A stretch of DNA of 60,050 bases from an uncultured Gammaproteobacteria bacterium (GCA_964478235.1 CAYZGX010000006.1:1-60050), one strand, 5' to 3'; counted from the stretch's first letter, positions 2,918 to 40,025 are shown. The notes: a model not told the origin generated them from the sequence alone. Numbers and translations are program-made.

Positions 2918-3517
2918 ATGTCCACCAATCATTCCCCAAGCAGTCGCCCTCTCGACGGAGACGATAAGACAACTAAAGAGATTGTTCTCGAGCTCCTCAA
3001 GCTCGTTGTTTTGGCAGTTTCCACCATCGTTATCATCCGCCATTTTCTCTTCAAGCCGTTCTACGTCAAAGGCGCTTCTATGGAGCCAAATTTCTTTGAT
3101 CACGAATATTTGGTGATTGATGAGTTGTCATACCGACTCCGTGAACCAGCTCGTGGGGACGTGGTTGTCTTCCGCTATCCAAATGATCCAAAAGAATTTT
3201 TCCTAAAACGTATTATTGGTTTGCCGGGAGAGCGAATTAAGATTGCCGAAGGAACTATTACTATCTACAACTCCGCCCACCCAGAAGGAAAAGAGCTCCA
3301 CGAATCCTATCTACCAACTGATCTCTTCACTATCGGCGAAGAGACGGCGGTAATTGGCGAAAACGAATATTACGTGATGGGGGATAATCGCTCTAATAGC
3401 TTTGACTCTCGCCGCTTTGGCGCTGTCAACAAAAGTGCGATTGTCGGACGAGCCTGGTTCCGCGGTTGGCCATTTTCTAGAATTGAAAAATTTGAAGCCC
3501 CACTATTTAATTTATAA
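2918..3517 (+). CDS. lepB: Signal peptidase I
   Basis: N-terminal TM segment, catalytic-Ser box GASMEPNF, RGDVVVF, KRIIGLPGE and GDNRSNSFDSR boxes. Confidence 0.9.
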   Translation: MSTNHSPSSRPLDGDDKTTKEIVLELLKLVVLAVSTIVIIRHFLFKPFYVKGASMEPNFFDHEYLVIDELSYRLREPARGDVVVFRYPNDPKEFFLKRIIGLPGERIKIAEGTITIYNSAHPEGKELHESYLPTDLFTIGEETAVIGENEYYVMGDNRSNSFDSRRFGAVNKSAIVGRAWFRGWPFSRIEKFEAPLFNL

Positions 3518-3537
3518 GGTTGTCGAGTATCCTATTT

Positions 3538-4938
3538 ATGAAACCAAAAAAACCAGCTGTTAAAAACAGCAAAGAACAACCAAAAAAAGATAAAAAACCA
3601 GCTAAGCCAGCTGCTGTTCCAGCCGGTGAAGCTAAGCCAGCCAACAAAAAGACCTACAACGTCTTGCGTGGCATGCGTGACATTCTTCCAAAAGAAGAAA
3701 AGTATTGGAAAAAACTCTACCACACCGCTGAAGGTTTGGCTGAGTACTTCCAGTTTGGCCGCATTGAAACTCCGCTTCTCGAAGAGGCTAATTTGTTTAT
3801 CCGCTCTATCGGCAAGGGGACTGATGTGGTTGATAAAGAAATGTATTTGTTTGAAGATAAGGACGGTTCTCGTGTCTGTTTGCGCCCTGAAGCCACTGCT
3901 TCGGTGGTTCGCGCCTATATCGGCAACGGTATGTGGAACATGTCTCAGCCGGTCAAAGTTTGGTACTGGGGTCCAATGTTTCGCCATGATCGCCCACAGG
4001 CTAATCGCTACCGTGAATTTTTTCAAGTTGGTTTTGAAACCCTTGGCGCCAAAGACCCATCAGCTGATGCTGAGCTTATTTTAAGCGCTTGGAACTTCTG
4101 TAAAGATATTAGTTTGCCAGTGGAAATTCGCATCAACAGTATTGGTACTGTTGAAGAACGCGAGCGTTATATCAACGAATTGACCAGTTATTACCGCTCC
4201 AAAAAGAGTTATCTCTGTGAAGATTGTCGCAATCGTATCACTAAAAACCCACTTCGTTTGCTTGATTGTAAAGAAGCTGGTTGTCAGCCAATCAAAGAAG
4301 GTATTCCACACATTCTCGACTGGCTCGAAGAAGATTCCAAAAATTATTTCATGAAAGTTTTGGAATATCTTGATGAATTGTCTATTCCTTACACCCTCAC
4401 CCCAACATTGGTGCGCGGTCTTGATTATTACACTCACACCGTTTTTGAACTTTTCCCAACGATTGGCGAAGAGGGGAGCCAAAGCGCAATTGGTGGCGGT
4501 GGACGCTACGATCTCTTAATTGAAGAGTTGGGCGGCAAGCCAACCCCAGCTGCTGGCTTTGCGCTTGGTGTTGATCGTGTCGTGAGCGCTCTCAAACGAG
4601 CTAACGAAGAGAATAAAGTCGTTATGCCTGAGCCAAAATATGATATTTTCTTTGCTCAGCTTGGTGATGAAGCTAAACGTCTCTCTTTGCGCCTTATTGA
4701 CGAGCTCCGTAAGTCAAACGTCAAAGTTGCTTTCAACTTCTTCAAAAACTCTCTCAAAACTCAGTTAGAGATCGCGAACACCCTCAAGGTATCTTATGTT
4801 ATTATCCTCGGACAAAAAGAAGTCCAGGACAAAAGTGTCATTATTCGCGATATGGAATCCGGTGTTCAGGAAATTGTTGACCAGAAAAAGCTGGAAAATA
4901 TCGTGCAGAAAAAGCTTGGTTTGACGGTGACCGAATAA
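3538..4938 (+). CDS. hisS: Histidine--tRNA ligase with Lys-rich N-terminal extension
   Basis: Class II HisRS motifs: LRGMRDILP, LRPEATASVVRAY, YWGPMFRHDRPQANRYREFFQ, GGGGRYD, GFALGVDR. The first ATG is at 3538; the ORF track begins at a TTG at 3520. Confidence 0.9.
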   Translation: MKPKKPAVKNSKEQPKKDKKPAKPAAVPAGEAKPANKKTYNVLRGMRDILPKEEKYWKKLYHTAEGLAEYFQFGRIETPLLEEANLFIRSIGKGTDVVDKEMYLFEDKDGSRVCLRPEATASVVRAYIGNGMWNMSQPVKVWYWGPMFRHDRPQANRYREFFQVGFETLGAKDPSADAELILSAWNFCKDISLPVEIRINSIGTVEERERYINELTSYYRSKKSYLCEDCRNRITKNPLRLLDCKEAGCQPIKEGIPHILDWLEEDSKNYFMKVLEYLDELSIPYTLTPTLVRGLDYYTHTVFELFPTIGEEGSQSAIGGGGRYDLLIEELGGKPTPAAGFALGVDRVVSALKRANEENKVVMPEPKYDIFFAQLGDEAKRLSLRLIDELRKSNVKVAFNFFKNSLKTQLEIANTLKVSYVIILGQKEVQDKSVIIRDMESGVQEIVDQKKLENIVQKKLGLTVTE

Positions 4939-5064: not shown

Positions 5065-5301
5065 GTGGCCGGCATTAAACGAAAAAAGAACGAATCATTC
5101 GAAGCATACATGCGTCGGGTGAAAAAAGTCTGGCAACAATCTGGTAAAGTATTACAAGTCAAAAAGACACAATACTTTAAAGGTGAAAAAAGTCGTAACG
5201 TACGACGTAAAAGCGCCTTACACCGCTTAGCAGTAGCTGATAAAATCAACTACTTGAAGAAGATTGGTCGCTTACCAGAAGATACATTCAAAAGAAAATA
5301 A
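5065..5301 (+). CDS. rpsU: 30S ribosomal protein S21
   Basis: 78-aa very basic protein. The pattern ESFEAYMRRVKKVWQQSGKVLQVKKTQYF..KSRNVRRKSA matches S21 (xxFExALRRFKR..GxxxExRRRxxYEKP..R). GTG start preceded by AGGAGGTG. Confidence 0.8.
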   Translation: MAGIKRKKNESFEAYMRRVKKVWQQSGKVLQVKKTQYFKGEKSRNVRRKSALHRLAVADKINYLKKIGRLPEDTFKRK

Positions 5302-5350: not shown

Positions 5351-7369
5351 ATGCTTCAATGGATTATGATACAGCTCAAATGTCTTCAGACAAAAACCAC
5401 CGTTATTATAGGGGTAACGACGGTGTTTTTTTGTTTTTTGTTTGGCTTTAGCCAGCCGGTTTTGGCGCAAACCATCGGCGACAGTGCCGCTCTCGACACA
5501 GGGCTTACGCAGGTTGAGCAATCTGGACTCGTCAATACCGACATTCGGGTAGTTGTTGCTCGTGTTATCCAAGTAGCCCTCGGCCTGCTTGGTATTATTT
5601 TTTTAATCATCATCATTTACGGCGGATATTTATACATGACTGCTGGCGGCAATCAGGAGCAAGTAGCCTCAGCAAAAAAAGTCCTCACCAATTCAGGTGT
5701 TGGCTTAATTATCATTCTGAGCGCCTATTCCATTGTGCTTTTGGTGATGCGCATGCTCGGTATTGGAGCTGAGTCAGCTGTTAATCTTGGAGATATTTTG
5801 GGCGGCACAAATGAAACTTCCGAACAAAACTTCTCTGGAGTCGGCGGTTTGGGTGGTTTGATCAAAGACCATTTCCCAGCTCGCGATCAAAAAGACGTTG
5901 CTCGCAACGCCAAAATTATCATCACTTTTAAAAAATCAATTCTTCTTTCGTCGGTTGTTGAAAATACGAACGGTAGTAAAAATGCCTCTGGTCAGGATTT
6001 ACTTGGTGACTGTATCAATGTCGGGGCGGCTATGAAATGGGAAACTGACTGCGACACTTTGAAAAAAGGTACTGATCTTATCAGTATTAAACAAACTGCC
6101 ACCGGCGAAGAAGTTCGCGGGGCGACTGTTTTGTCGGCTATAGAAAATGGTAATTATTATACTTTAGTTATTCGTCCGTTTGATGCTCTTGGTAACGCTT
6201 CAAATAAGCTCGGCTATACAGTTAGAATCGGTAAAAATGTATTAGAAGCTGATGGTGGGCAATCACTCTTTGAGGGGCGTTCAGCCGGCCGTGATTTCTA
6301 TGATTGGCAATTTTTCACCAACACTGTACTCGACACCTCAGCTCCTGTCGTCACTTCCGTTTTTCCAGAAAATGCCTCCACTGAAAGTAAAAACAGTGTT
6401 ATCCAGATTAGTTTTAGCGAGGCCATGGATCCAACCGGGCTCCAAGGTTCTTTTGTAGCTCAAGGTGACCACTATGCTGTTAATGGTGGCACTATTTTCT
6501 TAAAAAGCGACAACAGCTCTGTTCCAGTTGGTGATTTTCGTTTAGTAAATAATTACAAAACCTTAGAATTTACCCCTGCAAAAGAATGCGGCCAAAATAG
6601 CTGTGGCGGCAAAATTTTCTGCTTGCCAGTTTGTGATGAGACAGGGGCAAGTTGCCAAAAGGATGCCTATAAAGTTTTAGTCAAAGCAGCGACAGCCTTT
6701 AGTGCTAGCTCGTTTGAATCAGCGCCGTTCACTGGTGCAGCTGATCTCGCTGGTAATGCGCTTGATGGTAATCGTAACGGCCGAGTAGACGTCGCTTCTT
6801 CCACTGGTGCAGTTTTTCCAACTCAAGAAAAACCAGACAACTTTGTCTGGGGCTTTAGTCTCACCAATCAAGTAGACGCTACTGAACCATATCTCAAAAA
6901 AGTAACTCCTGGCCCAGATGCGCAAAATGTCGCTCCAGATCAAGATTTAACCTTGCTTTTCAGCAAGCGTATGCGAGTTGAGCCTCTCTACTCAATTGAT
7001 ATTGAAGAAAAACCAACTCCAACCGAACCGGTCTGTGTGGTGCCAACAGCTTTCTTCAACAGCGACGGCACAACGCTTGTTCGGCTGAACCACTGCCCAT
7101 TCGTTGTCGATGCTAACCATTATTATTATCCAATCGTTGATTCACAAGTTGAAGACGTGAAGTTTAATTGTTTCTTCCCAGGCAAAGGGCCAATTTCCAC
7201 TGACCAAGCGACCAAAGCTTCGCTCGTCTGTGATGAAAATCGCCCTGATCGCTGTTGCCAAGTAGATAACACCCCTGATAACTCTTTCTGCTGTAACGGT
7301 TTGACAAGTATTACTAGTAAAACAGCTTGTTTGAACGCGCTTAAAGCGGGGAGCCCGATAGAGCCATAA
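5351..7369 (+). CDS. Surface protein: signal peptide + conjugative-pilin-like two-helix anchor + SbsA-type Ig-like domains + Cys-rich C-terminus
   Basis: Signal peptide ..FGFSQPVLAQT. Anchor TDIRVVVARVIQVALGLLGIIFLIIIIYGGYLYMTAGGNQEQVASAKKVLTNSGVGLIIILSAY. Ig-like signatures DTSAPVVTSVFPEN..ISFSEAMDP and DATEPYLKKVTPGPDAQNV..LLFSKRM. Start is ambiguous (TTG 5345, ATG 5351 or ATG 5366). Confidence 0.85.
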   Translation: MLQWIMIQLKCLQTKTTVIIGVTTVFFCFLFGFSQPVLAQTIGDSAALDTGLTQVEQSGLVNTDIRVVVARVIQVALGLLGIIFLIIIIYGGYLYMTAGGNQEQVASAKKVLTNSGVGLIIILSAYSIVLLVMRMLGIGAESAVNLGDILGGTNETSEQNFSGVGGLGGLIKDHFPARDQKDVARNAKIIITFKKSILLSSVVENTNGSKNASGQDLLGDCINVGAAMKWETDCDTLKKGTDLISIKQTATGEEVRGATVLSAIENGNYYTLVIRPFDALGNASNKLGYTVRIGKNVLEADGGQSLFEGRSAGRDFYDWQFFTNTVLDTSAPVVTSVFPENASTESKNSVIQISFSEAMDPTGLQGSFVAQGDHYAVNGGTIFLKSDNSSVPVGDFRLVNNYKTLEFTPAKECGQNSCGGKIFCLPVCDETGASCQKDAYKVLVKAATAFSASSFESAPFTGAADLAGNALDGNRNGRVDVASSTGAVFPTQEKPDNFVWGFSLTNQVDATEPYLKKVTPGPDAQNVAPDQDLTLLFSKRMRVEPLYSIDIEEKPTPTEPVCVVPTAFFNSDGTTLVRLNHCPFVVDANHYYYPIVDSQVEDVKFNCFFPGKGPISTDQATKASLVCDENRPDRCCQVDNTPDNSFCCNGLTSITSKTACLNALKAGSPIEP

Positions 7370-7383
7370 TTTTCTAACTACCT

Positions 7384-10300
7384 ATGTCATTGTTTCGTTC
7401 ACTTGTCGTGCGAACTTTATTCACTACCACTCTCGTGGTTGGATTAGTATCCCTTTTCTCGTTGGTAGCGCTACCGGCCGAGCCAGCCTTGGCGCAGTCG
7501 GCTAGCTCTTCCTTAGATTTGGGTTTGAGCGCTGGTGCCGAAACAGGTCTTTCTAACACCGATATTAGAATTACTATCGCTCGTATTATTCGGGTGGCTC
7601 TTGGGCTTCTTGGTATTATTGCTTTGGTTTTGACTCTTTACGGCGGTTTTGTGTACATGACAGCCGCTGGTAATGAAGAAAAAATCGCACAAGCAAAAAA
7701 AATTCTTCTCAACGCTGGCGTTGGTTTGGTAATCATTCTTTCAGCTTTTGGAATTGTCAGCTTTGTTATTAGTAGCTTGGTTGGAGCAACCACAGGAGAC
7801 GGCGGTATTAGTATTGATGGTGGCAGTGGTGGCGAAGATGACGGCGGTGGCGGTGGTGGTTTTAGTCAATCATTTTACGTCTCAAGTTTGCCTCAAGTGG
7901 GTGCTGTTTGTATCCGCAACATTAAATTGGCAGTTCAGTTTAATAAAGATGTTGATTTGACCACAGTTGCTAATAACATTGTGGTTCAAGATACAACCTT
8001 GGCCGATCAGCCAGTCGCTGGTAGTTGGGACTATAGTTCCACCAGTACAAAAAACAGAATTGTCTTTTCGCCCGAAGGCTCATGTGCTCCAAGTGTCGGT
8101 AATGATTGTTTGAAGCCAGCAACTGCCTACAAATTAAATTTTGTTAATCCGGGAAACATTAAAACGCTCAGTAAAGCACCGGAGATGACACTCAATTGTC
8201 GTTTACGAGCTGGTTGTGGCCCGGTAGATTTCACCAGTGGTGATGGTGTTGATAGATTACCACCAACCGTGACCATTAATTATCCAACCACTGCCACCGT
8301 GCTGGAGGCCGGTGCTTCTGTGCCTGTCGCTATCACTTACACTGATGATAACGGTGTGCAAGGTTTGGATTTGCGCCGAAAGATTGCCGGGAACGACGTC
8401 TTTGTTGATTCAGTCTCGTTTGCTGGTTGTAAAAAAACTGACACCGTGACAATTAACTGGCCAACGCGCACTGCTGATGCTGGAGCAGTTATCTTGGAAT
8501 CGTCAGTGATTGACTGGGCTGGTTTATCAGCCAAAGATACACAGTCAGCCACCCTTCGCCCAAGTCATTGTTTCAACGGTGTCGTTGACAACACTCTCGG
8601 CGAAGAGGAATTAGGTCCGCCAGAATGTGGTGGGGTGTGCGGTGCTTGCGGTGGAACAACTTGTACCACCAGCGGATCATGTGCGAGCGGTGTTTGTAGC
8701 TCGGGTGTCTGCGCGAACGTCATGAAAATTACCCGTTTCTCACCAGCCAGCGGTGCTCCGGGAACATTTGTAACTATTGTTGGTCAATTTTTTGGTACTA
8801 AGCCAGGTAAAGTATTTTTTGCCACCAAAGATGCTCCAGTGGTAGAAAATGCCAGTGACTGGGTAGAAGCTGGACTCGTTACTTGTGGTGGGGCAGTTGG
8901 TAGTTGGGGGAGTGGTCAGATTATTGTTCGAGTGCCAGCTGGCATTGCGTCATACGCTCACATTAAAGTTGAGTCTGCTCCGTTTTTGAATGCGAGCGGT
9001 GCTCAAACAAAAAATATTGATTCTACCTCACGTCATATTGAACTTAATCCATTTGAATCAAACAATGTTGTTCGTCCAAGCATTTGTTCAGTTAGTCCAG
9101 TAAGTGGTAAGCCGGGCGACACTGTCACTGTTCGCGGTGTTGGTTTTGGTGTTTTAAGTAGCGCTACCGACGCTGTATTGTTTGGTGATACCGAAGCAAC
9201 CGTCGCTCAAAATGCTAGCGGTCAGAGCGCTTGGTCGGACACGCAAATCAGTGTCACTGTGCCAGCTGTTGAAGCTGGGGCAGTCGGCCTTACTGTTGCC
9301 AAAAACGATGTTGATAGCAATAGTGTTCGCTTCACTATTGAACAAGGTGTTGACAGTGGTTTACCAACCATCACCAGTGTTTCTCCAGCGGTCTCTCCAG
9401 CTGGCGGGTATATTACGCTTACTGGTAGAAATTTTGGTAGTCGTTTGGGAACAGTTACTTTTAAAACATCAGCCGGCGCCTCAAGTATTTTAGGGGATTT
9501 TTCTTTCCCAGCCGCCTGCCGTGAAACTGTCTGGACCGACAATAGTATAATTGTTAAGTTTCCAAAAAATGCCGGAGTTGTTGGACAAAAATATGCTATT
9601 CAGGTGACGTCGGCTAATGCTGAAACAAGTGTTTTTGACAGTAGTCAAGCGGTAACGTTGGCGAGTGGTGATCCATCGCCAAGTATTTGTGCGATTTCTC
9701 CAGCTTCAGCACCTGATCCATTTCCAGCGGGTCAGACTGTTAAAATTTATGGCGACTATTTTGTCACGGCCAGTGCTCCATCGCCAACAATTTATTTTTC
9801 CACCGCGGGCGCTAGCGCCAACAGCACTTCCACCGGTCGCGTCGCTGTTTCGAGCGCTAATATCATTCAAGTTACCACCAATGCTGCCACGGTTGTTCCT
9901 CCGGTTGGTATTTCTACCGGTCCGGTTTCAATTTATCGTCCAACTGATAATCAGCTGAGTAATCCAGCCCAATTCGGCATCTTTGATTGCCGTAGTGGTG
10001 GCACGTGTGGCGAAGGTACTCGCTGTTGTTCGGCAGGTGCTCAGGCTGGTCTTTGTAAGGCTGATACAGAACTGTGCAGTGGCGAAGTGCTATCTGCTGG
10101 TTACGTCTGGCGTTTTGCCACCAAAGATATTCCGCCAGTGCCTCGTGTTGTTGAACGCTGTGACGATGTTGTGTCCGAAGGCTTAGCTTTGCCGTCGCCA
10201 GCTCCAAGCACTCAGTGGGACGCTAATCAGGCAGGGGATAGTTACAAAGTATGTCGAAGTGCTCTCGCGACAGTTGAGTTTACTGCTTTTCTTGATCCAA

Positions 10301-13300
10301 CTACCGTCAACGCTTCGTCAGTTAAAGTTTCCCGTTGTGAATCTATCGATGAAAATGACACTTGTGTTAGTCCAACGCCAATTACTTTGACGCCAGGTAG
10401 TTTTGAGCTCAAAGCTGCTGGTGGAAGCGCTAACGCCGCGCGTCATTATTTGGAATTACAACCAAACGACCGCATTTGGGCCGACAACAGTTGGTATCAA
10501 GTATCTATCGGCGACACCGTCGCTAGCTTAGCGAGTGATGGCACTCGTGGCCCAACAGTCCCAGAAGAAAAACCATGTGGCGCTGGCACTGCGTATTGTT
10601 TTGCTTTCCGAAGTGGGGCGGTTGATTGTCAATTAAAAAATGTTTTAGTCACTCCTTCGTCGTTCGTTACTCAAGTGCTAGAAGCACCGATCCGTTTTTA
10701 TAACGCTTCTGGTCCGCTTGATCCGGTTATCTATCGGGCTAATGGCCTCAGTTCTCAAAAATGTGTCATGATGGACGTCAGCACTGTTCCGTGGGAATGG
10801 GAGACTGCTGGTATTCAGTATGCTGATATTTTTGGAGGACGAAGTGGTCAAACTGTCCGAGTTGAATCAAAAGCTAATACCGTTGGTGTTGGTGTAGAAA
10901 AAGATGCTGTCGACGTGTCGGCTAACGCTCGTTTGGTGACCGGTAGTGGCTCAAGTGTTAAAACCGGCGTCAGTCCATTGACCGTTGATTTAAGCACTCC
11001 AACTGTTATAGATTATTGGCCGAAATGTTTAGAGGCTTGTACCAACGCCGAGGTCGGTGTGCGTTTCAATGTCTCCATGTCTGACCGCAACCTTAACGGG
11101 GCAGTTGAAAAAGGTTCAGTCCAACTTCTTAAATGTAGCGATGAAAATTGTATCGACACAACTTCGGTTGGTAATTCTTCAGATATTTCGCTCCACCCAG
11201 AAAGTTCTGGAACAGTATTGCAAATCGCTAATTCATCCCAAACAGCTCGTGAACTGGAGCCAAATACTTTATATCAAATTGTTATCTCGACCAGTAGCAC
11301 CAATCCAACAACTGATAGTAAAGTTTTGTGGGCTCGGGCGAAGTCTACTGATGCTTCATCGGTCGGTAAGCCGTTTAACGAAACATTCACCTGGCGTTTC
11401 CGCACCAAGCAAGATCGCTGTAAGATTGATCGTGCTGAAGTGTTACCGAAATCATTTTTAGCCCGCACTATTTCTGAGCGTACAGTCTACACGGTACAAC
11501 CATACGCTTCTCCGGATGCTTGTTCGGCCAAAGGACAAAAATTAAACCCATGGACTGTTTCTTGGAGTTGGAGTTCGAGTGATACTGCTGTGGCGAGTGC
11601 TACTTCATTCACTACTCGCGGCACCAATCCAGCCTGCACTAATAAATGTGTAGTCAAAGGCAGTTCCTTGCCAGCCTCAACCAGCGCTAAGCCACTGCCA
11701 GTTTGTGGTAATGCCGTTATTGAAGCTGGTGAAGATTGTGACGGTCCAAGTCTAGAAAAACGCTGTAGCCTCGACTGTCGATTTATGGGAGTCGTTGGAG
11801 GTACTTGTGGTAACGGTGTAGTCGATAGATACGAAGCCTGTGATCCAAAAGATGCGACAACAGGTGCTGGTTGTTCTATTGACTGTCGCCGCACCGGTTC
11901 TGATAAAGCCACCTCCGCCGAAGCTGTATCGAGCTCTATCTGCGGTAACGGTCTTATTGGTTTGGGTGAAGATTGTGACGTTGGCATCAAAGCTTCAGTT
12001 GATAACAGCCAGTCTTCAGTCAATTGTTCTGCGCGCTGTCTCCATACAGGAAGTCGTTTGTCCACTAAATGGTGTGCTGACAATCGTAGTAACTTCGCTG
12101 GTTTTGAAGCCTCTGTATACAAAACAGCTTGCGCCACCGCCTTTAGTCAATGTGGCGACGGCGTCCAAAATCCAGACGAAGATCCAGGGTGTGATTTAGG
12201 CGACGGAAAGTTTGCTTCATTCTGTAATCAATATTGCATTATCAATTCAGCCACCAAGAGTGAATGTAGTGCTGGATCTGAAGGTTGTGGGGCCAACGGC
12301 CAACACCTTGGTTCGTCATTGTCATATTCAGTTCCTTCGCTATGTGGTAACGAGCGCGCAGAAATCGGTGAAGACGCTGTTTGTGAGCAGTCACTCACTG
12401 TTTCTCGTTCAAATTTATTTGATCCATGGGTGCTCGTTACGGCAGTTGGTCGGGGTGTTACGTCAGGTCAGCCCCCAGCACAGACAAGTAATATTAGAGC
12501 AGCCACCAACCAAGGGACTGCCAGCGGTGCTGTTGAGGGTGCTGCCGAATTTACTTTGAGTTGTGGCTATCGCAACGACGTGGAATGTTCTGAAGCAATG
12601 AACTCTACAGCTTACGGTGTAGGGGCAAATTCCTGTTGTTTTATAAAACCAACCCTACTCAGCACTGTCCCGGCTAACGGATCAACCAGTATTTGTCGCA
12701 ACACCGTTCTTGAAGCCAAGATTAACGGCGTCGTTGATTCCCGCACTCTGCCAGGTAATGTATTGATTGCGCGCGGTGTCTACGGTGCGAGTGCTACTTG
12801 TGGCTCAGGAGCAATCGACGTCACTGATTTGATGGCCCTCTATACTGGCGGCGAAACATCTGCCCCATGGTATTCTCGTGCTCTCGCCGTGGTCAAACGA
12901 TTGTTTGGTCAGTCTGTTTCTGCTGCCCCAGCCCTTCCAACCAAATGGTGTGCTGGTGAAATTCAAGGAACTGCCCATACTAGACAAGATGCTCTCAATA
13001 CTTCTACATCTTACATCACTGTTGACCTGCTTAAGCCTTTAGAAGAAAAAACCTATTATGCAGTTATTCTTGAAGACGGTGTTCGTGACTCCCGCGGCGT
13101 TAGTTTGTCAGTCAAAGGTGTGCCGCTTAATTGGAAATTTGAAACAGCCAGTAAGATTTGTGAAGTTGACGCTGTTAACGTAACGCCAGCCAACTGGTTC
13201 TTCTCCAAAACAGGAACAACAACCACACTGTTTGCCGAAGCAAAATCCCTGGCTTTTGGGGCTGTCCAATCTATCCCAGGAGTTTATTCTTGGAAGTTTA

Positions 13301-16300
13301 TTTGGGAACCAGATGATAATCCCTATGTTTTTGTACCAGACGTCGCTTCGGCCACCAACACTATCACTGCTCAAAACAGAAATGGTGAGTTGGATGTACG
13401 TGCCTTTGCAAGAATAGTCGATAATACCTTTGGCACAGCCACCGGCACTGTCGGCAACGGTAGCTCGCATGTTATTGTGTCGTTATGTGAAAATCCATGG
13501 CCATCACGTCAGGCGAGAAATAATGCCGGTGTATGGTTCAGTGCTTTCCCATTCAAAGACGCCAAGGGCAACACTAGTGGTTTTGACAGTCTCGCCAAAG
13601 TGTTCAACGGATCGGTAATTCCAAAATCGACAGTCGTTGCGCTAGGGGTAGGGGATGGCTATTTCAATTTTAGTACTCACTATTGTGCTGATAATGGCGG
13701 TGTAGGGACATTTGATGATTTACCATATCTACAACCAGCTGTTCCAAGCGACTCAGCGCTTTTCCGCTCCAACACTGGTAGTTGTGAAAATAGTGGTGAC
13801 ACCTGCCAAGTAGATAGTGATTGCGGTATTTATTATAATGACCCAGGCTTTGTTGCCCCTTCAAATGCTACGAGCGTCTGCGGCGGCACAACAGCAAATG
13901 GTGGTAAGCAGTATTTCTTCAACAGTACCGCCGACACGGTTCGCTGCTCTGCAGTGAGTGATTGTGCCAGCACCGAGTTCACTAGTTGGGCATCTCGCAA
14001 TAGCTATTCTCCAGCCTGTGTAGCTGTTCCAACAACCAACAAACGTCAATTATCTTGTTATAAATATCCTCCACTCAAACGATTTATCTTCACTAACACG
14101 GTGAATAGTGATGCTATCGGCATCCAGGTATTTGCCAACCCACAACACCTGACAGCTGAGCAATGGTATCAAAAAGATAAGAGTGCTGGCGGACAAGGAT
14201 TTGTCGGGTCGCTCCAAAAAGCTAGTATCTCAGGCTACCAAGCAGCCACCGACGGTAGTAATGTCTATGTTGATGCGCTTAACTATTCACCAGATTCAAA
14301 ACAACTGGAAAGTAATATTTATCTTTTCAGTATCAACCAAAATGCTAAACCAGAAACACGACAGGTTTTTGAACAACTGCTTAGCAATCTTAAGCTCAAC
14401 ACCAACCTAACCTACAACGACGGATACTGTGGTAGTTCAATGACTAATCCAGAATTCACTACCCGCTGCTCCAGCGATCTCGATTGTTCCGGCAGCCAAG
14501 TGTGTGTTAATCAGGTGGCAAAACTAAAAAATAACTATCAGCGTCTACGTGATCTGAAGCAAATTGATTCGTTACTCCAAGGGTATAGTCGAAATAACAG
14601 CGGTGCTTACCCAACGCTCGCGACCGGCAGTTTCTTACCAGGTCAAAGTTTGAGTGTCTGGGATTGGGCCGGTTTGTCACAAGCCCTCAATGTCGGCATT
14701 CCTCGTGATCCGATCAACAAGCTTGGTCGCGCTGGGACCTGCACCAAGAGTCCTTCTGCTTACTGCACCAAAGATAGCGACTGCTCTAATGACACTTGTA
14801 CACTTCACGATCCGCTCACTGGTTGGAGCACAGCCGACCGTCGTTTTAGTTTTGCTTGCTCACCAGATTCGTATGCCTACCGCTACACCTACACCCCAAA
14901 CGCTGGGTTTACTGTGCTTAGTAACTTTGAAGATGTTGGCTTTGATCCAAGTAATATAAAATCATTTATTGATGGTTTTAACTTCAGTGATTTGTCTCGA
15001 TTTAAAGGTGTCTTGCCTGATGGCGCTAGTTCAGGTGTGTGTGGGTCCGATAGAGAAGTGACCACTATCAACACTGGTACCTGTGGTGACGGTCAGATCA
15101 ATCTCACTAAAGGTGAGCAGTGTGATCCTCCAGGTTCCAAAGTGTATGACAGGAGTGCTTGTACCACAGTTGGTACCGGCTCAGCTACGATGAGAACCTG
15201 TAGTTCTGATTGTCGCCTAAGTACCCCTTCAACAGTTAGTTGTTTGGACGCCACCAAATGTGGTAATGGCCGTATTGATACCGGTGAGCAATGTGACGAC
15301 GGTGTTCAAAATGGTAAATGGAATAAATGTTCCACCTCCTGCACCTTCCCTCCGACCACGCCAAACCCTGGCTACTGTGGCGACAGAACGCTTCAGTCAG
15401 CTAATGAAGTGTGTGACGGCGGGCGACAAGTAACAACCTGTTCAACTGTCCAAGACTGTGCTCCTCAGCAAGTTTGTGTCGATAACACTACTTGTGGTAG
15501 CAAATGTCGTTGGAACAACACGCTGACAAATTCAAGCTGCTCTAGCGTAATGGGTTGCCGTGGTTATTTTAGTAATAGCCAGCAAGTTTTACAGTCGTGG
15601 TATGTTCCATCAGCCTCTCCAGCCACCGTTACTCCAGACAGTTTCATGACAAAAATTAATCTCGTTTCAGGGGTTAGTGGTATTACTAACATTCAGTACG
15701 TCTCCGCCAACTGTTCGACAGTTAGTTTCCCATACAACTGTACGATAGTCTTTAACTATAATGCAGCTGCCAACCCAACGTGTAATATAGCCATGAATTT
15801 GCGCGGTGAAGCCACGATGACCCTTGATCCGCGAACGCAATGTGTGGGAACAAATTGTCTTGGAACTATAAGTCAGATTAGCTCAAGTGGACCTGGCTGC
15901 GTCGGCGGAAGTACCCTGGCTGATAAAGATAAGATTACTATTTCTTTGACCAAAGACATCACTCCGTTGTCATGCGATCAAGATCCAGCATCGTGTGTGA
16001 CTACTCAGAGTTGCACCACCCAAAGTGTCTGTACTGCTCGCGAAGTTTGTACTACTGCGACCGTAGATATCGGACAGCCAACCTACGCCATGACCCGTAA
16101 CCAGTCGTGTAGTTGGGATTGTCAAAATTATGGTCCATATTGTGGTGACGGGGTTGTTCAAACACAATATGGTGAAGAATGCGATGGGGCCAAAACCTGC
16201 TCGCTTGGGGCTGTCTCTGGCAGTAAAGCTTGCTCGGCTTCTTGTAAATTTGTTGATTCATCCTCGGCTGGCTGGTGGCCACTCTCCACTCCATCGTCTT

Positions 16301-18471
16301 CGCCAACAGTCTTTATGAATAAGGCTACTTCTGGAAACGGTACTTGTTCAGGAAGTGGCTGTCCTTCGTTCTCGTCAGATGGTAGTAAAAACGGCCAAGG
16401 AACCTATCGTTTTGATGGCAGTGATGATGTGATAACCATTGCTAATAATGCCGCTTTGAATCCAACTGCTACACTATCTATTGAAGCCTGGGTTAAACCG
16501 GAAAACACTCGCAACTATCAGCGCGTGCTTGAAAAAGGCGGCTTCGCTGTTGGTGGTGGGTATGGAATTGAGCTTAACAATGGGAATTTGCCAGCCTTTG
16601 TTGTTTGGGGGGCAAGTGGAGCTAATGATCCAGCCACCAAGCGAGCAATTGATGCGACAACAGCTGTACCGGCGGGAGTATGGTCGCACATTGTGGCTAC
16701 CTACGAGTTCCGCGCTACCGCTCAGCAAGAAATTTTGAAAATATACATCAACGGCGTTCTCGATAATACGGTTACTCGTTCGGCCGCTGTGTCTGCCCTC
16801 AATACCAACACTTCGCCAATCACTCTTGGTCGAGCTGGCCGAGGAGCAAGTGACTTCTTCACTGGTTTCATGAACGATATTCGTATTTTAAATCGAGTTC
16901 TTCAGCAAAACGAAGTGACTGACAGATATAACAATACCGCCTGGCCATGTGGCGTACCTGCACAATCCTCAAATATCACTGTCGCAGCTGGAACCTGTGG
17001 CGATGGTATGGTTGATGCTGGTGAAGCATGCGATCTGGGGCTTGGTAAAAACGGCGATCGCAATTGGTGCAATCCAACGACTGGTCAAACCTGTCAGTAC
17101 TGTTCAGCTGACTGTCGAGCTAGTACCAACGCCACCTCAGAACAATTCTGTGGCAACGGCGTGCTTGAAGGTGCTGAAGTCTGTGAAACAGATCAGAGTA
17201 CCGGCCGTATGTACACTCGTTTCCAAGATAGAACATCTACCTATCCAAATCTAACTACTGCTCGCGGTGGTTATTTGGTGAAGCAGTGTGCGGCAGTAAT
17301 TCAAAACGACCCTAACGCCGAACTAGTTGAAAATAACATCTTTAAAAAAGGTACTAAAGTGTGTGCTCCGGATTGTACGCGCATTACTATTCAAGAAACA
17401 GGCAGTAACACTTGTGAACGTTGTGGTATCGATCCAAATGGCGTAGAAGTGCGTGGTATGGCGGTAAATGTCTTGTTGCCTAATCAAGCAACACCGTTTG
17501 ATGACCCAGCTTCAAGCAATGTTCCGCTCCTTGGTTTGTATGGCTATAATGCGTCTCCAGCCACAACAAGTTCAAATGCTTATCGTCTAGTACCAGTCTT
17601 ATTCGGATCGATGACTGCACCATTTACAGCTTTGCTCAACCCAAACAACGAGCCGAAATCATTTGTCTTTGCTGACAACGCCGGCACTCCGCTTCGTTTC
17701 AACCCAGACCCACTCTGTTCAGACAGTTCAAGTGGTATGAGTTATACTGTTGTTATGAATAATAACGGTCTTCATCATCCGATTTCGATTTTGAAACAGG
17801 CGCAATTATGGCAATACGATTTCGCAGTGTCACCGGTTATTCGTCAATCTATTCGACCAAATGATATGCGCGTGGTGGTCAGTTGGGTTGGGCCATTTGA
17901 CTTCAACGTCGGCTTAGCGCAGACAACAGCAACTGGTGTTAAAAACGACAATGACACTAATTTTGCGCCAAACGCTCGAACCGGTCTTGATTACTACACC
18001 AAAGCCTTCAGTGACAAATCCGTGGGTGGTTGGAATGTCTGGTATCATGGGTTAGGTCAAACAACCAACGGAACATCTGTTGAAGCCTTCACGATCGACA
18101 CTTCTCGAATGGTTGCCGAAACGTATAAGTTGTTTGTTCATTCACCAGGTCAATCAATTAAAAATTTCTCTTCGAACGCTCGTATCAAAGTGGATGTCTA
18201 CTTACCAAAAGCTCTGAGCACTGGTTACGAAGGTTTGATTAATGGTAACTATTACTATCCAGACAAACCAACCAAGACCATCTACTTTAGCGCTTCGGAT
18301 ATGACTACTACCAACCAATCAGCTTCATATTGGCATGCACTCACTATCAAACGAACTGGCGCTACGATGGTTGAAAAGATTGGTAAAGCCGCCTTCTTCA
18401 ATGCGACCAACGGCCAAGTATTAGAATTTGAAAATGGTCGTATTGTTACTAATGCTGCTGAAATGCAATAA
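7384..18471 (+). CDS. Giant (3695 aa) surface protein: pilin-like anchor, Gly linker, Ig-like and IPT/TIG domains, cysteine-rich CGxG..CD repeats, LamG-like domain
   Basis: Uninterrupted 11-kb ORF. Signal peptide ..PAEPALAQS. The anchor TDIRITIARIIRVALGLLGIIALVLTLYGGFVYMTAAGNEEKIAQAKKILLNAGVGLVIILSAF is paralogous to the preceding gene. IPT/TIG-like units: ITRFSPASGAPGTFVTIVGQFFG, ICSVSPVSGKPGDTVTVRGVGFG, ITSVSPAVSPAGGYITLTGRNFG. At least 11 CG(N/D)Gxxxx(G)E(x)CD repeats. LamG-like YRFDGSDDVITIANNAALNPTATLSIEAWVKPE. Confidence 0.9.
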   Translation: MSLFRSLVVRTLFTTTLVVGLVSLFSLVALPAEPALAQSASSSLDLGLSAGAETGLSNTDIRITIARIIRVALGLLGIIALVLTLYGGFVYMTAAGNEEKIAQAKKILLNAGVGLVIILSAFGIVSFVISSLVGATTGDGGISIDGGSGGEDDGGGGGGFSQSFYVSSLPQVGAVCIRNIKLAVQFNKDVDLTTVANNIVVQDTTLADQPVAGSWDYSSTSTKNRIVFSPEGSCAPSVGNDCLKPATAYKLNFVNPGNIKTLSKAPEMTLNCRLRAGCGPVDFTSGDGVDRLPPTVTINYPTTATVLEAGASVPVAITYTDDNGVQGLDLRRKIAGNDVFVDSVSFAGCKKTDTVTINWPTRTADAGAVILESSVIDWAGLSAKDTQSATLRPSHCFNGVVDNTLGEEELGPPECGGVCGACGGTTCTTSGSCASGVCSSGVCANVMKITRFSPASGAPGTFVTIVGQFFGTKPGKVFFATKDAPVVENASDWVEAGLVTCGGAVGSWGSGQIIVRVPAGIASYAHIKVESAPFLNASGAQTKNIDSTSRHIELNPFESNNVVRPSICSVSPVSGKPGDTVTVRGVGFGVLSSATDAVLFGDTEATVAQNASGQSAWSDTQISVTVPAVEAGAVGLTVAKNDVDSNSVRFTIEQGVDSGLPTITSVSPAVSPAGGYITLTGRNFGSRLGTVTFKTSAGASSILGDFSFPAACRETVWTDNSIIVKFPKNAGVVGQKYAIQVTSANAETSVFDSSQAVTLASGDPSPSICAISPASAPDPFPAGQTVKIYGDYFVTASAPSPTIYFSTAGASANSTSTGRVAVSSANIIQVTTNAATVVPPVGISTGPVSIYRPTDNQLSNPAQFGIFDCRSGGTCGEGTRCCSAGAQAGLCKADTELCSGEVLSAGYVWRFATKDIPPVPRVVERCDDVVSEGLALPSPAPSTQWDANQAGDSYKVCRSALATVEFTAFLDPTTVNASSVKVSRCESIDENDTCVSPTPITLTPGSFELKAAGGSANAARHYLELQPNDRIWADNSWYQVSIGDTVASLASDGTRGPTVPEEKPCGAGTAYCFAFRSGAVDCQLKNVLVTPSSFVTQVLEAPIRFYNASGPLDPVIYRANGLSSQKCVMMDVSTVPWEWETAGIQYADIFGGRSGQTVRVESKANTVGVGVEKDAVDVSANARLVTGSGSSVKTGVSPLTVDLSTPTVIDYWPKCLEACTNAEVGVRFNVSMSDRNLNGAVEKGSVQLLKCSDENCIDTTSVGNSSDISLHPESSGTVLQIANSSQTARELEPNTLYQIVISTSSTNPTTDSKVLWARAKSTDASSVGKPFNETFTWRFRTKQDRCKIDRAEVLPKSFLARTISERTVYTVQPYASPDACSAKGQKLNPWTVSWSWSSSDTAVASATSFTTRGTNPACTNKCVVKGSSLPASTSAKPLPVCGNAVIEAGEDCDGPSLEKRCSLDCRFMGVVGGTCGNGVVDRYEACDPKDATTGAGCSIDCRRTGSDKATSAEAVSSSICGNGLIGLGEDCDVGIKASVDNSQSSVNCSARCLHTGSRLSTKWCADNRSNFAGFEASVYKTACATAFSQCGDGVQNPDEDPGCDLGDGKFASFCNQYCIINSATKSECSAGSEGCGANGQHLGSSLSYSVPSLCGNERAEIGEDAVCEQSLTVSRSNLFDPWVLVTAVGRGVTSGQPPAQTSNIRAATNQGTASGAVEGAAEFTLSCGYRNDVECSEAMNSTAYGVGANSCCFIKPTLLSTVPANGSTSICRNTVLEAKINGVVDSRTLPGNVLIARGVYGASATCGSGAIDVTDLMALYTGGETSAPWYSRALAVVKRLFGQSVSAAPALPTKWCAGEIQGTAHTRQDALNTSTSYITVDLLKPLEEKTYYAVILEDGVRDSRGVSLSVKGVPLNWKFETASKICEVDAVNVTPANWFFSKTGTTTTLFAEAKSLAFGAVQSIPGVYSWKFIWEPDDNPYVFVPDVASATNTITAQNRNGELDVRAFARIVDNTFGTATGTVGNGSSHVIVSLCENPWPSRQARNNAGVWFSAFPFKDAKGNTSGFDSLAKVFNGSVIPKSTVVALGVGDGYFNFSTHYCADNGGVGTFDDLPYLQPAVPSDSALFRSNTGSCENSGDTCQVDSDCGIYYNDPGFVAPSNATSVCGGTTANGGKQYFFNSTADTVRCSAVSDCASTEFTSWASRNSYSPACVAVPTTNKRQLSCYKYPPLKRFIFTNTVNSDAIGIQVFANPQHLTAEQWYQKDKSAGGQGFVGSLQKASISGYQAATDGSNVYVDALNYSPDSKQLESNIYLFSINQNAKPETRQVFEQLLSNLKLNTNLTYNDGYCGSSMTNPEFTTRCSSDLDCSGSQVCVNQVAKLKNNYQRLRDLKQIDSLLQGYSRNNSGAYPTLATGSFLPGQSLSVWDWAGLSQALNVGIPRDPINKLGRAGTCTKSPSAYCTKDSDCSNDTCTLHDPLTGWSTADRRFSFACSPDSYAYRYTYTPNAGFTVLSNFEDVGFDPSNIKSFIDGFNFSDLSRFKGVLPDGASSGVCGSDREVTTINTGTCGDGQINLTKGEQCDPPGSKVYDRSACTTVGTGSATMRTCSSDCRLSTPSTVSCLDATKCGNGRIDTGEQCDDGVQNGKWNKCSTSCTFPPTTPNPGYCGDRTLQSANEVCDGGRQVTTCSTVQDCAPQQVCVDNTTCGSKCRWNNTLTNSSCSSVMGCRGYFSNSQQVLQSWYVPSASPATVTPDSFMTKINLVSGVSGITNIQYVSANCSTVSFPYNCTIVFNYNAAANPTCNIAMNLRGEATMTLDPRTQCVGTNCLGTISQISSSGPGCVGGSTLADKDKITISLTKDITPLSCDQDPASCVTTQSCTTQSVCTAREVCTTATVDIGQPTYAMTRNQSCSWDCQNYGPYCGDGVVQTQYGEECDGAKTCSLGAVSGSKACSASCKFVDSSSAGWWPLSTPSSSPTVFMNKATSGNGTCSGSGCPSFSSDGSKNGQGTYRFDGSDDVITIANNAALNPTATLSIEAWVKPENTRNYQRVLEKGGFAVGGGYGIELNNGNLPAFVVWGASGANDPATKRAIDATTAVPAGVWSHIVATYEFRATAQQEILKIYINGVLDNTVTRSAAVSALNTNTSPITLGRAGRGASDFFTGFMNDIRILNRVLQQNEVTDRYNNTAWPCGVPAQSSNITVAAGTCGDGMVDAGEACDLGLGKNGDRNWCNPTTGQTCQYCSADCRASTNATSEQFCGNGVLEGAEVCETDQSTGRMYTRFQDRTSTYPNLTTARGGYLVKQCAAVIQNDPNAELVENNIFKKGTKVCAPDCTRITIQETGSNTCERCGIDPNGVEVRGMAVNVLLPNQATPFDDPASSNVPLLGLYGYNASPATTSSNAYRLVPVLFGSMTAPFTALLNPNNEPKSFVFADNAGTPLRFNPDPLCSDSSSGMSYTVVMNNNGLHHPISILKQAQLWQYDFAVSPVIRQSIRPNDMRVVVSWVGPFDFNVGLAQTTATGVKNDNDTNFAPNARTGLDYYTKAFSDKSVGGWNVWYHGLGQTTNGTSVEAFTIDTSRMVAETYKLFVHSPGQSIKNFSSNARIKVDVYLPKALSTGYEGLINGNYYYPDKPTKTIYFSASDMTTTNQSASYWHALTIKRTGATMVEKIGKAAFFNATNGQVLEFENGRIVTNAAEMQ
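8720..9960 (+). repeat. Array of IPT/TIG-like beta-sandwich repeats inside the giant ORF (protein-level repeat)
   Basis: Four or more units of about 80-100 aa, each opening with I(T/C)xxSPxSGxPGxxVT(I/V)xGxxFG. Confidence 0.6.
11698..12390 (+). repeat. First cluster of cysteine-rich CGNG..E(D)CD repeats inside the giant ORF
   Basis: CGNAVIEAGEDCDG, CGNGVVDRYEACDP, CGNGLIGLGEDCDVG, CGDGVQNPDEDPGCD, CGNERAEIGEDAVCE. Further copies lie at 15078..15420 (3 copies), 16138..16188 and 16992..17187 (2 copies). Confidence 0.65.
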
Positions 18472-18483: not shown

Positions 18484-18927
18484 ATGATGAAAAAAATTGC
18501 TATACTATCACTATTCGTTCTCCTTGGTTTTGGCTGTAAGGAAGGGGAGGGGCAGTTGGTAGAGGTGTCCAAAGAAGAAGGAATAAAAGTATCCGAAGCA
18601 GTGTCGCCAAAAGCGACAAGTACTGCGAGCGCCCCGGTTGTTACTACTTCCTCTAGTCAGATCGCTGAAAAGAAAGCAGAGTATGAAATAATTAAGACAG
18701 CTGTACTCAAAGATGCCGATCTCGACGGGTTGTCTAATGAAGAAGAAAAAACGCTCGGCACTGACCCAAACAACGCTGATACTGACGCCGATGGGGTGCT
18801 CGACGCTTCTGAAAAAACGTACAAGACCGATCCGCTCAAAGCAGATACCGACGGCGACGGGTATAATGATGGTATAGAAATTAAAAAAGGTTTCAACCCA
18901 GCGGGTCCTGGTAAATTGACTCTCTAA
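18484..18927 (+). CDS. Probable lipoprotein with thrombospondin-type-3-like Ca-binding repeats
   Basis: Signal/lipobox-like MMKKIAILSLFVLLGFGC. Asp-rich repeats DADLDGLSNEEE, DPNNADTDADGVLD, DPLKADTDGDGYNDGIE. C-terminal GFNPAGPGKL. Confidence 0.8.
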   Translation: MMKKIAILSLFVLLGFGCKEGEGQLVEVSKEEGIKVSEAVSPKATSTASAPVVTTSSSQIAEKKAEYEIIKTAVLKDADLDGLSNEEEKTLGTDPNNADTDADGVLDASEKTYKTDPLKADTDGDGYNDGIEIKKGFNPAGPGKLTL

Positions 18928-18936: not shown

Positions 18937-19707
18937 ATGTTTGACGATCAACCACTCGAACCAGAATCACAAGTGCCGCACAATTTGCCATCTGAGCCAG
19001 CTGACATGCTCGAAAGCGTTGAAAAAGACGACTCTGCACTGTCGTCGGCTGAAAAAGCTCCTCTGGCGTTTCCAAACGCCCTGTCATCGGGCCTTCTCAA
19101 GAAAAAAGAATCAGGTAGTGTGCCAGTTGGTGGAAGCCCTATGTCTGTGCCAGCTATGGCTACAGTTGAAGCTGGTGGTGGTTCGTTTGTAGGCGTTGCC
19201 TTCAAGATTCTCGGTGCGTTCGTGGTGGTTGGTGGTCTCGGAGTGGGCGGTTGGTGGTTCTACAGTAGTTTTGTAGCCGTCGAGCCTGAAATGACGACGG
19301 TGGTAGAAGAAACCGCCGCTCCGGCAGCCGTTCAGACTTCGGTGAGTGATACTTCGCTCGAAGTCGCTCCAGCAGTAACAACCTATCAAACACCAGCAGT
19401 TTCTCAATCTGCAACGGTCACTGCACGCACCAATAATGATGCAATCTTATTTGGTGAATTGACCGATACTGACAAAGACGGCTTAAGCGATATGCGCGAG
19501 CGCGAGCTTGGCACGGGTGTAAACAGTCTTGATTCCGATGGTGACACCGTGTCTGACAGTGATGAGGTGTTGGTTTGGAAGACCAACCCACTTAGTAGCG
19601 ACACTGATGGTGATTCGTATCCTGATGGTACGGAAATTAAAAATGGGTATAATCCGCTCGGTCCAGGTCGCCTGGTGTTACCAGGGGCATCAACCAGCAC
19701 TCAATAA
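18937..19707 (+). CDS. Membrane-anchored protein with thrombospondin-type-3-like repeats
   Basis: Central TM (VAFKILGAFVVVGGLGVGGWWFY). C-terminal TDTDKDGLSDMRERELG..DSDGDTVSDSDE..DTDGDSYPDGTEIKNGYNPLGPGRL. Confidence 0.8.
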   Translation: MFDDQPLEPESQVPHNLPSEPADMLESVEKDDSALSSAEKAPLAFPNALSSGLLKKKESGSVPVGGSPMSVPAMATVEAGGGSFVGVAFKILGAFVVVGGLGVGGWWFYSSFVAVEPEMTTVVEETAAPAAVQTSVSDTSLEVAPAVTTYQTPAVSQSATVTARTNNDAILFGELTDTDKDGLSDMRERELGTGVNSLDSDGDTVSDSDEVLVWKTNPLSSDTDGDSYPDGTEIKNGYNPLGPGRLVLPGASTSTQ

Positions 19708-21350: not shown

Positions 21351-21353
21351 TCT

Positions 21354-21719: not shown

Positions 21720-21740
21720 TGTATACTACCCCCGTACTGT

Positions 21741-37548: not shown

Positions 37549-37566
37549 GTTGTTCTTTTAAACGGT

Positions 37567-37605
37567 GGCCTGCGTACTGACACAATGAATGTCGGTACGC
37601 AGGCC
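37567..37605 (+). terminator. Strong 15-bp hairpin after the peptidase gene (no clean T-tract)
   Basis: GGCCTGCGTACTGAC / GTCGGTACGCAGGCC with loop ACAATGAAT. Confidence 0.45.
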
Positions 37606-40018: not shown

Positions 40019-40025
40019 CGAGACT

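Follow-up and report, generated by a model that had tools for sequence, protein, structure and literature searches.

A 60,050-nucleotide stretch of DNA, deposited under the title of an uncultured Gammaproteobacteria bacterium (GCA_964478235.1, CAYZGX010000006.1:1-60050) but assigned here to an ultra-small Patescibacterium, and referred to at its full length as the window, encodes two adjacent surface proteins, A and B, in which the membrane hairpin of a Patescibacterial type IV secretion system (T4SS) pilin family precedes a large ectodomain. The gene content of the window is that of an ordinary chromosome. Its 5′ part holds, in order, the 3′ part of a 16S rRNA gene, tRNA-Val, tRNA-Ile, a TrmA-like methyltransferase gene, lepB, hisS, and rpsU; these are followed by A, B, three genes for membrane proteins or lipoproteins with thrombospondin type 3 (TSP3) repeats, ybeY, dgkA, ftsA, ftsZ, nrdR, and more housekeeping genes (Table 1). 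A and B are co-directional, and B starts 15 nucleotides after A. The open frame of A runs from 5345/5366 to 7369, and the start at 5366 (MIQLKCLQ...) was taken from the gene calls of a public assembly that carries an identical B. A scan for sigma-70 promoters and terminators around this gene cluster returned consensus-level matches only, which do not define an operon. Pfam searches with every sizeable open reading frame (ORF) of the window detected no VirB4, VirB6, or VirD4, and, over all frames of the 60 kb, a hidden Markov model (HMM) search with the hairpin module found only the copies in A and B.

Two surface proteins with a common N-terminal hairpin

In a BLASTP comparison, A and B share a single significant segment (A 18-142, B 15-135; 64/125 identical residues, 51%; E 4e-28), with no other common segment outside these N-terminal ~125 amino acids (aa). 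Within the 75-aa core of the module, 46 residues are identical. Hydropathy analysis resolved exactly three hydrophobic segments per protein, all N-terminal and corresponding to a signal peptide, helix 1, and helix 2; there is none beyond residue 141 in A or 137 in B, and no C-terminal anchor. AlphaFold2 models a helical hairpin in each protein, with a predicted local distance difference test score (pLDDT) >90 in B. An earlier examination of the DNA (the sequence-only reading) had proposed that both proteins carry the same segment of ~70 aa after a signal peptide, that this segment consists of two hydrophobic helices joined by a short loop, that it is fused to ectodomains of ~560 and ~3550 aa, and that no T4SS machinery lies in the window. 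Each of these points is borne out by the results above, the motif given for the segment being readable in both translations and the residues C-terminal to the module numbering ~536 in A and 3,559 in B.

Both signal peptides are of type I with an AXA site. In A, residues A34 and Q35 are nearly invariant among 82 orthologs, within a signal-peptide region that is poorly conserved overall (0.43), and LepB, the type I signal peptidase encoded upstream, is a candidate enzyme for cleaving both signal peptides. Given a signal peptide and then two transmembrane (TM) helices, both ends of the hairpin are placed outside and its loop (GGNQEQVASAKK in A, AGNEEKIAQAKK in B) in the cytoplasm.

In both proteins, the hairpin is followed by a linker and then by folded domains, of the Big_5 family in A and of the Big_5, TIG, Big_7, and Laminin_G_3 families in B. 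The A ectodomain is modeled by AlphaFold2 as all-beta, with pLDDT mostly >90, and contains 14 Cys residues that are invariant in the 82 orthologs. Foldseek searches with A retrieved immunoglobulin (Ig)-like domains and stalks of L,D-transpeptidases, the S-layer protein SbsC, and CopC, and among the matches of the full-length protein there was no enzymatic or specific receptor-binding homolog. The B ectodomain includes Cys-rich repeats of the form CGxG...GExCD and ~1,900 aa without a family match, and B contains 144 Cys in total (4.1%). No enzyme domain was found in either ectodomain, and both look like extracellular binding or stalk domains. Searches with Pfam and hydropathy analysis detected no S-layer homology (SLH) domain, LPXTG motif, C-terminal signal of a type I secretion system (T1SS), or C-terminal TM segment in A or B, and Pfam gave no match to PF07963 (N_methyl). 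In two related loci, L004 (L004:12051-19754 and 19759-22049) and L016 (L016:9974-16753 and an ORF from 16783), B is split into two ORFs, the second of which holds the Laminin_G_3 part without the pilin module; this split could be a real gene fission or an artifact of assembly or frameshift.

Table 1. Positions of the A-B gene pair, its protein parts, and adjacent genes in the window
Feature	Position	Strand	Basis or remark
lepB, type I signal peptidase (S26)	2918-3517	+	Pfam Peptidase_S26, E 9e-45
hisS	3520-4938	+	Pfam tRNA-synt_His; housekeeping context, no functional part
rpsU (S21)	5065-5301	+	S21 assigned via ortholog in L004; housekeeping context, no functional part
Gene A, 667-aa modular pilin-family surface protein	5366-7369	+	ORF; start from public gene call
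A signal peptide, aa 1-34, predicted cleavage VLA/Q	5366-5467	+	Hydrophobic 9-33; AlphaFold2 helix 5-27
A hairpin, aa 58-131 (helix 1, loop GGNQEQVASAKK, helix 2)	5537-5758	+	PF18895; AlphaFold2 helices 60-92, 97-130
A linker, aa 132-158, disordered	5759-5839	+	pLDDT <50 over 135-158; conservation 0.45
A ectodomain, aa 159-667, tandem Ig-like (Big_5) and Cys-rich C-terminal part	5840-7366	+	Big_5, E 1e-15
Gene B, 3,695-aa giant modular pilin-family surface protein	7384-18471	+	ORF; identical product on public contig
B signal peptide, aa 1-37, predicted cleavage ALA/Q	7384-7494	+	Hydrophobic 6-37; AlphaFold2 helix 3-29
B hairpin, aa 59-136	7558-7791	+	PF18895; AlphaFold2 helices 61-93, 98-136, pLDDT 90-95
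B linker, aa 137-160, Gly/Asp-rich, ...GATTGDGGISIDGGSGGEDDGGGGGGF	7792-7863	+	Translation; pLDDT drops past residue 136
B ectodomain	7864-18468	+	Pfam: Big_5, Big_7, four TIG/IPT, Laminin_G_3
B ConA-like lectin domain, Laminin_G_3, aa 3011-3178	16414-16917	+	Pfam
TSP3-repeat protein 1	18484-18927	+	TSP3_bac match; lipobox or TM segment in translation
TSP3-repeat protein 2	18937-19707	+	TSP3_bac match; lipobox or TM segment in translation
TSP3-repeat protein 3	19726-20922	+	TSP3_bac match; lipobox or TM segment in translation

Family membership and sequence constraint

The hairpin truly belongs to PF18895 (T4SS_pilin), the family of VirB2-like pilins in Patescibacteria, which the sequence-only reading had described as enriched in the candidate phyla radiation (CPR) and marked by this motif. 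The profile scores 33.9 bits for A, 39.1 bits for B, and 44.6 bits for the N-terminus of B alone, at a gathering threshold of 26.6. A search with the first 149 aa of B returned 359 proteins, the best 120 of which are almost all stand-alone PF18895 proteins (median 129 aa, 45-68% identity) from Magasanikbacteria, Uhrbacteria, Falkowbacteria, and other Patescibacteria. Both A and B follow the plan of the family, with a cleavable signal peptide and two hydrophobic helices joined by a short polar loop. Free PF18895 pilins, including those in the arrays of Southlakia epibionticum and TM7x (PMC10633639, PMC12102498), fall into the same HMM family and display the same succession of signal peptide, TD.R motif, helix 1, GGNEE..AKK loop, and helix 2. 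They are ~120-130 aa long and encoded in arrays of 2-13 genes, often near virB4. In contrast, A (667 aa) and B (3,695 aa) add 536 and 3,559 aa C-terminally. Their genes constitute a fixed pair downstream of lepB-hisS-rpsU, at a distance from arrays and T4SS genes; this pair stands alone in the window and in 43 related loci.

If the hairpin were a generic double-TM anchor, its similarity to pilins would stem from composition. Matches driven by hydrophobic bias are common, and the hairpin fold itself matches any helical hairpin in the PDB. Among 80 module relatives, 38 touch the classical TrbC/VirB2 family PF04956 at E <= 0.1 (best 8e-6) and 34 touch DUF898, an unrelated TM family, at the same cutoff, with other TM families touched as well; since 34 of the 80 relatives touch DUF898, the weaker family matches arise partly from hydrophobic bias. 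However, all 80 relatives match PF18895, A and B both score above its curated threshold, and the module, besides its 45-68% identity to hundreds of free pilins and the BLASTP match between A and B, shares with free pilins the polar loop and invariant positions occupied by Gly, Asp, and Lys. A chance resemblance is thus effectively refuted and can be regarded as extremely improbable.

The hairpin is also the part of A under the strongest constraint. In the 82 orthologs, it forms the most conserved 74-aa segment (mean top-residue frequency 0.76), compared with a median of 0.63 and a maximum of 0.74 for segments of the ectodomain and 0.43 for the signal-peptide helix. Across 42 other species, identity to the proteins of the window is 51% for the A module and 64% for the B module, 27-30% for the ectodomains, and 55%, 54%, and 47% for LepB, HisRS, and S21, respectively. 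The A/B consensus is essentially the free-pilin consensus, cytoplasmic loop included. To judge from these alignments, such conservation would be unexpected for a passive anchor and argues against that role.

A conserved cassette, pilin arrays, and homogenized hairpins

How often the module is fused to large ectodomains, a question for which the sequence-only reading had proposed a survey, was addressed by scanning one genome per species. At least 551 stretches encoding the module were found, and the best 80 loci, ranked by similarity to the B module, were analyzed. An A-B tandem is present in 43 of these 80 and an array of small module genes in 31, a 43:31 ratio that reflects the ranking and represents no population frequency; the other 6 loci are mostly short contigs. 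The tandems encode A-like proteins of ~570-1,030 aa and B-like proteins of ~600 to >3,470 aa, the shortest of which occur where the contig or flank ends, and the module is N-terminal in both. All pair loci belong to the class ABY1 where the class is known. Upstream of the pair, lepB is found in 37, hisS in 38, and rpsU in 39 of the 43 loci; lepB-hisS-rpsU-A-B is a conserved cassette that is newly described here. Homologs of the TSP3 proteins occur 3′ of B in at least 8-11 pair loci, many loci ending inside B, and the three Ca-binding repeat proteins encoded there in the window are possible accessory surface proteins. The A family comprises >200 clusters (640-750 aa, 42-94% identity), nearly all of them combining PF18895 with Big_5. 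This co-occurrence of PF18895 with ectodomains is visible in precomputed Pfam annotations and is known at the database level only; a literature search found no paper on PF18895 modules fused to large ectodomains.

The closest representative of the window among these loci is L008 (CAYUBH010000003.1), with 92-100% protein identity. L008, L011-L014, and ~35 other loci come from records titled "uncultured Gammaproteobacteria bacterium" that contain a Magasanikbacteria-like cassette or arrays, and these titles look like placeholder or wrong taxonomy.

The arrays consist of 5-13 small module genes. In one to three members per array, 200-420 aa of Cys-rich ectodomain separate the signal peptide from helix 1, and the protein stops directly behind helix 2; ORFs with this reverse architecture number 26 in the 80 loci (e.g., L011:8380-9507, L045:242-1480, L053:899-2230, and L078:4961-6451). 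With cargo on the N-terminal side in these array members, both termini must be extracellular, and the occurrence of fusions on either side indicates that the family tolerates large fusions at both termini, as expected if the termini are exposed. Pairs and arrays, and hence A/B proteins and free PF18895 pilins, occur together in the same ABY1 genomes, clearly so in the assemblies JACOYB01, CAYXJO01, CAYPPF01, and MFQN01 and probably in JBAYLH01. Of five pair-bearing genomes, all of class ABY1, four have VirB4 according to Table S1 of PMC12102498: Magasanikbacteria GW2011_GWC2_37_14, Magasanikbacteria RIFCSPLOWO2_12_FULL_43_12, Falkowbacteria RIFOXYA2_FULL_47_19, and Buchananbacteria RIFCSPHIGHO2_02_FULL_39_17. 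The fifth, for which VirB4 is given as absent, is Parcubacteria CG2_30_45_37, a 619-kb draft.

On one Magasanikbacteria contig (L049), the distance between a gene for a VirD4-like coupling protein and a lone free pilin is 2.5 kb; in this region (L049:4854-7409 to 9950-10396), the VirD4-like gene (TrwB_AAD_bind, T4SS-DNA_transf), dnaX, and a gene for a Peptidase_C39_2 protein are located directly 5′ of the pilin. A Peptidase_C70/C39_2 protein is also encoded near the A-B pair in L002 (1-142). Genes for a solute-binding protein (SBP_bac_1/SBP_bac_8) precede arrays in 22 loci (e.g., L011:6268-7686, L006:5051-6436, and L007:6701-8134), and ten loci (e.g., L019:1569-3380) encode a 604-aa protein that combines the N_methyl motif of type IV pilins with CarboxypepD_reg domains. 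A bAvd/23S_rRNA_IVP gene, coding for an accessory protein of diversity-generating retroelements, lies two genes 5′ of the pilin array in L006 (4628-4996).

The hairpins of A and B were compared over 88 core columns in the 43 pair loci. Between genomes, A-A, B-B, and A-B identities are all 0.52-0.54, whereas A and B of the same genome are 0.66 identical; the module's own partner ranked first of 43 in 24 cases and among the top two in 32, and the two module types cannot be told apart at any column. A compositional artifact is excluded by the small pilins, since those encoded in a given genome resemble its A/B modules no more than foreign ones do. At four-fold synonymous sites of identical residues, 47.3% match versus 34.7% expected from genome codon usage, an excess that was observed in 35 of the 43 loci (Wilcoxon p 2e-7) and reaches 66-76% matching sites in some pairs. 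Same-genome identity and synonymous excess together indicate that the 5′ ends of A and B have been repeatedly homogenized through gene conversion, to which selection for matching hairpins may have added. The A-B pair of the window itself, with 8 of 25 four-fold sites matching, displays no recent conversion.

These results also bear on the idea that the hairpin only guides insertion, the ectodomain being cleaved in the Gly-rich linker and then released or passed to the cell wall. Such a carrier would fit the disordered, poorly conserved Gly-rich linker after helix 2 in both proteins, and classical TrbC/VirB2 propilins do lose a C-terminal part during maturation. Nevertheless, the linker (conservation 0.45) shows neither a protease site nor a conserved motif, conservation at the level of HisRS and homogenization of A with B would be needless for a part that is thrown away, and the plain signal peptide present in both proteins would suffice for export, making this an unlikely explanation.

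Proposed modular pilins and alternative roles for the hairpin

The reading favored here, to which an even chance may be given, is that A and B are modular pilins whose hairpin is more than a passive anchor. Both proteins would be exported via Sec and have their signal peptides cut off by signal peptidase I, for which the LepB encoded three genes upstream is a possible candidate. The processed protein would then be a two-helix membrane hairpin with both ends outside and a short charged loop in the cytoplasm, its C-terminal end leading through a flexible Gly-rich linker into a disulfide-rich ectodomain of the adhesin type. As the hairpin is under the sequence constraints of free pilins, it probably makes the same contacts, which would be packing on other pilin hairpins (those of A and B included), docking on a T4SS platform encoded elsewhere, or both. 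A and B could thereby be held at, or built into, the free-pilin assembly and supply it with a host-binding surface. The geometry is compatible with a pilus, since in the F pilus the loop between the helices lines the lumen and both termini face outside (PMC5018250). An appendage of 3,500 aa is too big for every subunit of a tight helical filament, and this steric limit implies that A and B would be only minor or tip subunits. A more specific version, which is put forward only tentatively, is that they are subunits of a VirB2-type filament assembled by the T4SS, at its tip or as sparse minor components, with their hairpins packed among free pilins, the ectodomains pointing outward, and gene conversion keeping the hairpins matched. 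The sequence-only reading had offered two options, the module as a membrane anchor or polymerization module, or display of the proteins on or from a pilus-like fiber; a module shared by both proteins stands, the notion of a mere anchor is argued against by conservation and concerted evolution, and a pilus is possible.

Several observations weigh against modular pilins, beginning with that steric limit. The A-B pair never adjoins T4SS genes or pilin arrays, either in the window or in the related loci, the VirB4 tally comes from related genomes, and the modules are no closer to small pilins of their own genome than to foreign ones. The high conservation of the hairpin could also stem from homo-oligomerization unrelated to any T4SS. 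The kinship to TrbC/VirB2 pilins claimed in the sequence-only reading holds at the level of PF18895, and a direct relationship is weak: A aligns to PF04956 over its full length at only 11.9 bits (E 0.27; cutoff 27.9), B has no PF04956 match, and a module profile searched against all PDB sequences gave 0 matches at E <= 10. The hhalign alignment of module positions 57-119 with positions 52-107 of Agrobacterium VirB2, whose sequence was verified against 8cue, is in register, but has a probability of only 12% (E 0.0025). A Foldseek search of the PDB with the model of B 1-149 returned generic helical hairpins only, all at E >1 and including a chemoreceptor, ATP synthase c, and ESCRT, with no pilin in the top 50, a two-helix hairpin being too simple to discriminate. 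The label "conjugative pilin" rests on PF18895 as curated in Pfam and on published work on Saccharibacteria, and a PF18895 pilus has never been observed in any Patescibacterium, reviews mentioning it as a possibility only (PMC12857230).

Several of these observations would also suit a pilin hairpin exapted, with no link to a T4SS or free pilins, to anchor constitutive envelope proteins stably in the membrane, perhaps with self-association, these proteins forming either a coat like an S-layer or long fibrils on the surface. The pair is surrounded by housekeeping genes in an operon-like arrangement (lepB-hisS-rpsU ... ybeY-dgkA-ftsA-ftsZ), well away from T4SS genes and arrays, and no covariation links its modules to the small pilins encoded in the same genome. 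The top Foldseek matches of the A ectodomain include SbsC and Ig-like stalk domains, a preprint reports that S-layers are prevalent among Patescibacteria (bioRxiv 10.1101/2024.05.28.596244), and one pair-bearing draft genome is listed without VirB4. However, that genome is the 619-kb draft, a passive anchor should evolve like the signal-peptide helix, and it is the hairpin, including its GGNEE..AKK loop, that is best conserved and has kept the free-pilin consensus. Exaptation as an anchor is therefore somewhat doubtful; if correct, it would still be a clear case of a secretion-system pilin exapted for giant surface proteins.

Among known systems, the free PF18895 pilins are the nearest relatives of A and B, and modular type IV pilins offer the nearest functional analogy. 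We know of no classical TrbC/VirB2/TraA member with a large folded domain. Like these pilins (PF04956; 8cue/8exh, F pilus), A and B have a signal peptide, two hydrophobic helices, and a short polar loop, and the outward-facing termini of the F pilus are compatible with terminal fusions; unlike them, they score below the PF04956 threshold, and there is no evidence for cyclization, acetylation, lipid binding, or polymerization. A lectin domain of the ConA-like type is present in B, and the lectin module of PilC from Streptococcus sanguinis is reportedly of this family too. The modular type IV pilins PilB and PilC of this species similarly combine a pilin module that enters the filament with a C-terminal ligand-binding module (PMC8179133, PMC9934059). 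Type IV pilins differ from A and B in possessing only one helix, at the N-terminus, and a class III signal peptide that is processed by a prepilin peptidase, and fold and machinery are unrelated; the resemblance is one of analogy, not homology.

In function, A and B would fill the same slot, a target-binding surface, as the tip protein VirB5, LPXTG adhesins of the PrgB type, and "extended VirB6", the last showing that T4SS membrane subunits can gain large hydrophilic domains (PMC12857230). No sequence relationship to these proteins was detected, A and B have a pilin hairpin as opposed to an LPXTG motif, a soluble tip protein, or a polytopic VirB6, and, unlike such T4SS-associated adhesins and extended subunits, they are not encoded with a T4SS. 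SiiE, SbsC, and the giant surface proteins of Vampirococcus (PMC8080830) are likewise very long, Ig-like or lectin-rich extracellular proteins associated with Cys and Ca, a type of protein found here in a host-dependent ultra-small bacterium; they use T1SS signals, SLH or LPXTG motifs, or a single C-terminal TM segment, whereas A and B use an N-terminal pilin hairpin. Two further candidates were considered and rejected. The Pam pilus of CPR bacteria (PMC13278184) is built from Ig-fold pilins by donor-strand exchange, with single C-terminal TM anchors and no mention of T4SS pilins, and the proteins of a giant-gene survey (bioRxiv 10.1101/2023.11.21.568195) are Omnitrophota proteins with SecA-like domains that are unrelated to A and B.

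Patescibacteria, which live attached to other cells, represent a major part of bacterial diversity. To our knowledge, conjugative-type pilins are always tiny proteins, and A and B may be the first of them to carry adhesin domains of their own. In the sole system tested genetically, that of the cultivated Saccharibacterium Southlakia epibionticum, the T4SS locus and the VirB2-like pilin array within it are both essential (PMC10633639). A survey reports PF18895/PF04956 matches for 1,948 Patescibacterial assemblies with VirB4, along with 441 arrays of 2-11 genes; the accessible part of that study counts PF18895 matches without mention of fusions and states that no adhesins such as PrgB were detected in Patescibacteria (PMC12102498). 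If A and B are indeed filament subunits, they would be the first conjugative-type pilins of modular build and would provide the Patescibacterial T4SS with its "missing" adhesin. The A-B pair is class-wide and strongly conserved, and its 0.5-3.5 thousand residues of Ig-like and lectin domains are concrete candidates for host recognition, while the large antigenic ectodomains offer a handle for locating the pilin assembly by immuno-electron microscopy or cryo-electron tomography.

Elsewhere in the window, the 3′ part of the 16S rRNA gene, tRNA-Val(GAC), and tRNA-Ile(GAT) (1-1547) are followed directly by protein-coding genes, and 23S rRNA is absent from the remaining 58 kb, so that the rRNA operon appears to be unlinked. 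Two islands of ~56% G+C (32000-34000 and 36000-38000), in a window otherwise at 42-48%, cover an EamA-type transporter gene with a glycosyl-hydrolase-like gene and an M1 aminopeptidase gene (LTA4-hydrolase-like); they flank tRNA-Val(TAC) and may have been acquired horizontally. Further downstream (39476-45265), co-directional genes encode a sigma factor of the extracytoplasmic function (ECF) type, a DUF5667 protein in an anti-sigma-like position, and a 1,231-aa protein without a Pfam match; this group sits upstream of a gene for a Wzy_C/TPR protein and a sugar-nucleotide/glycosyltransferase cluster.

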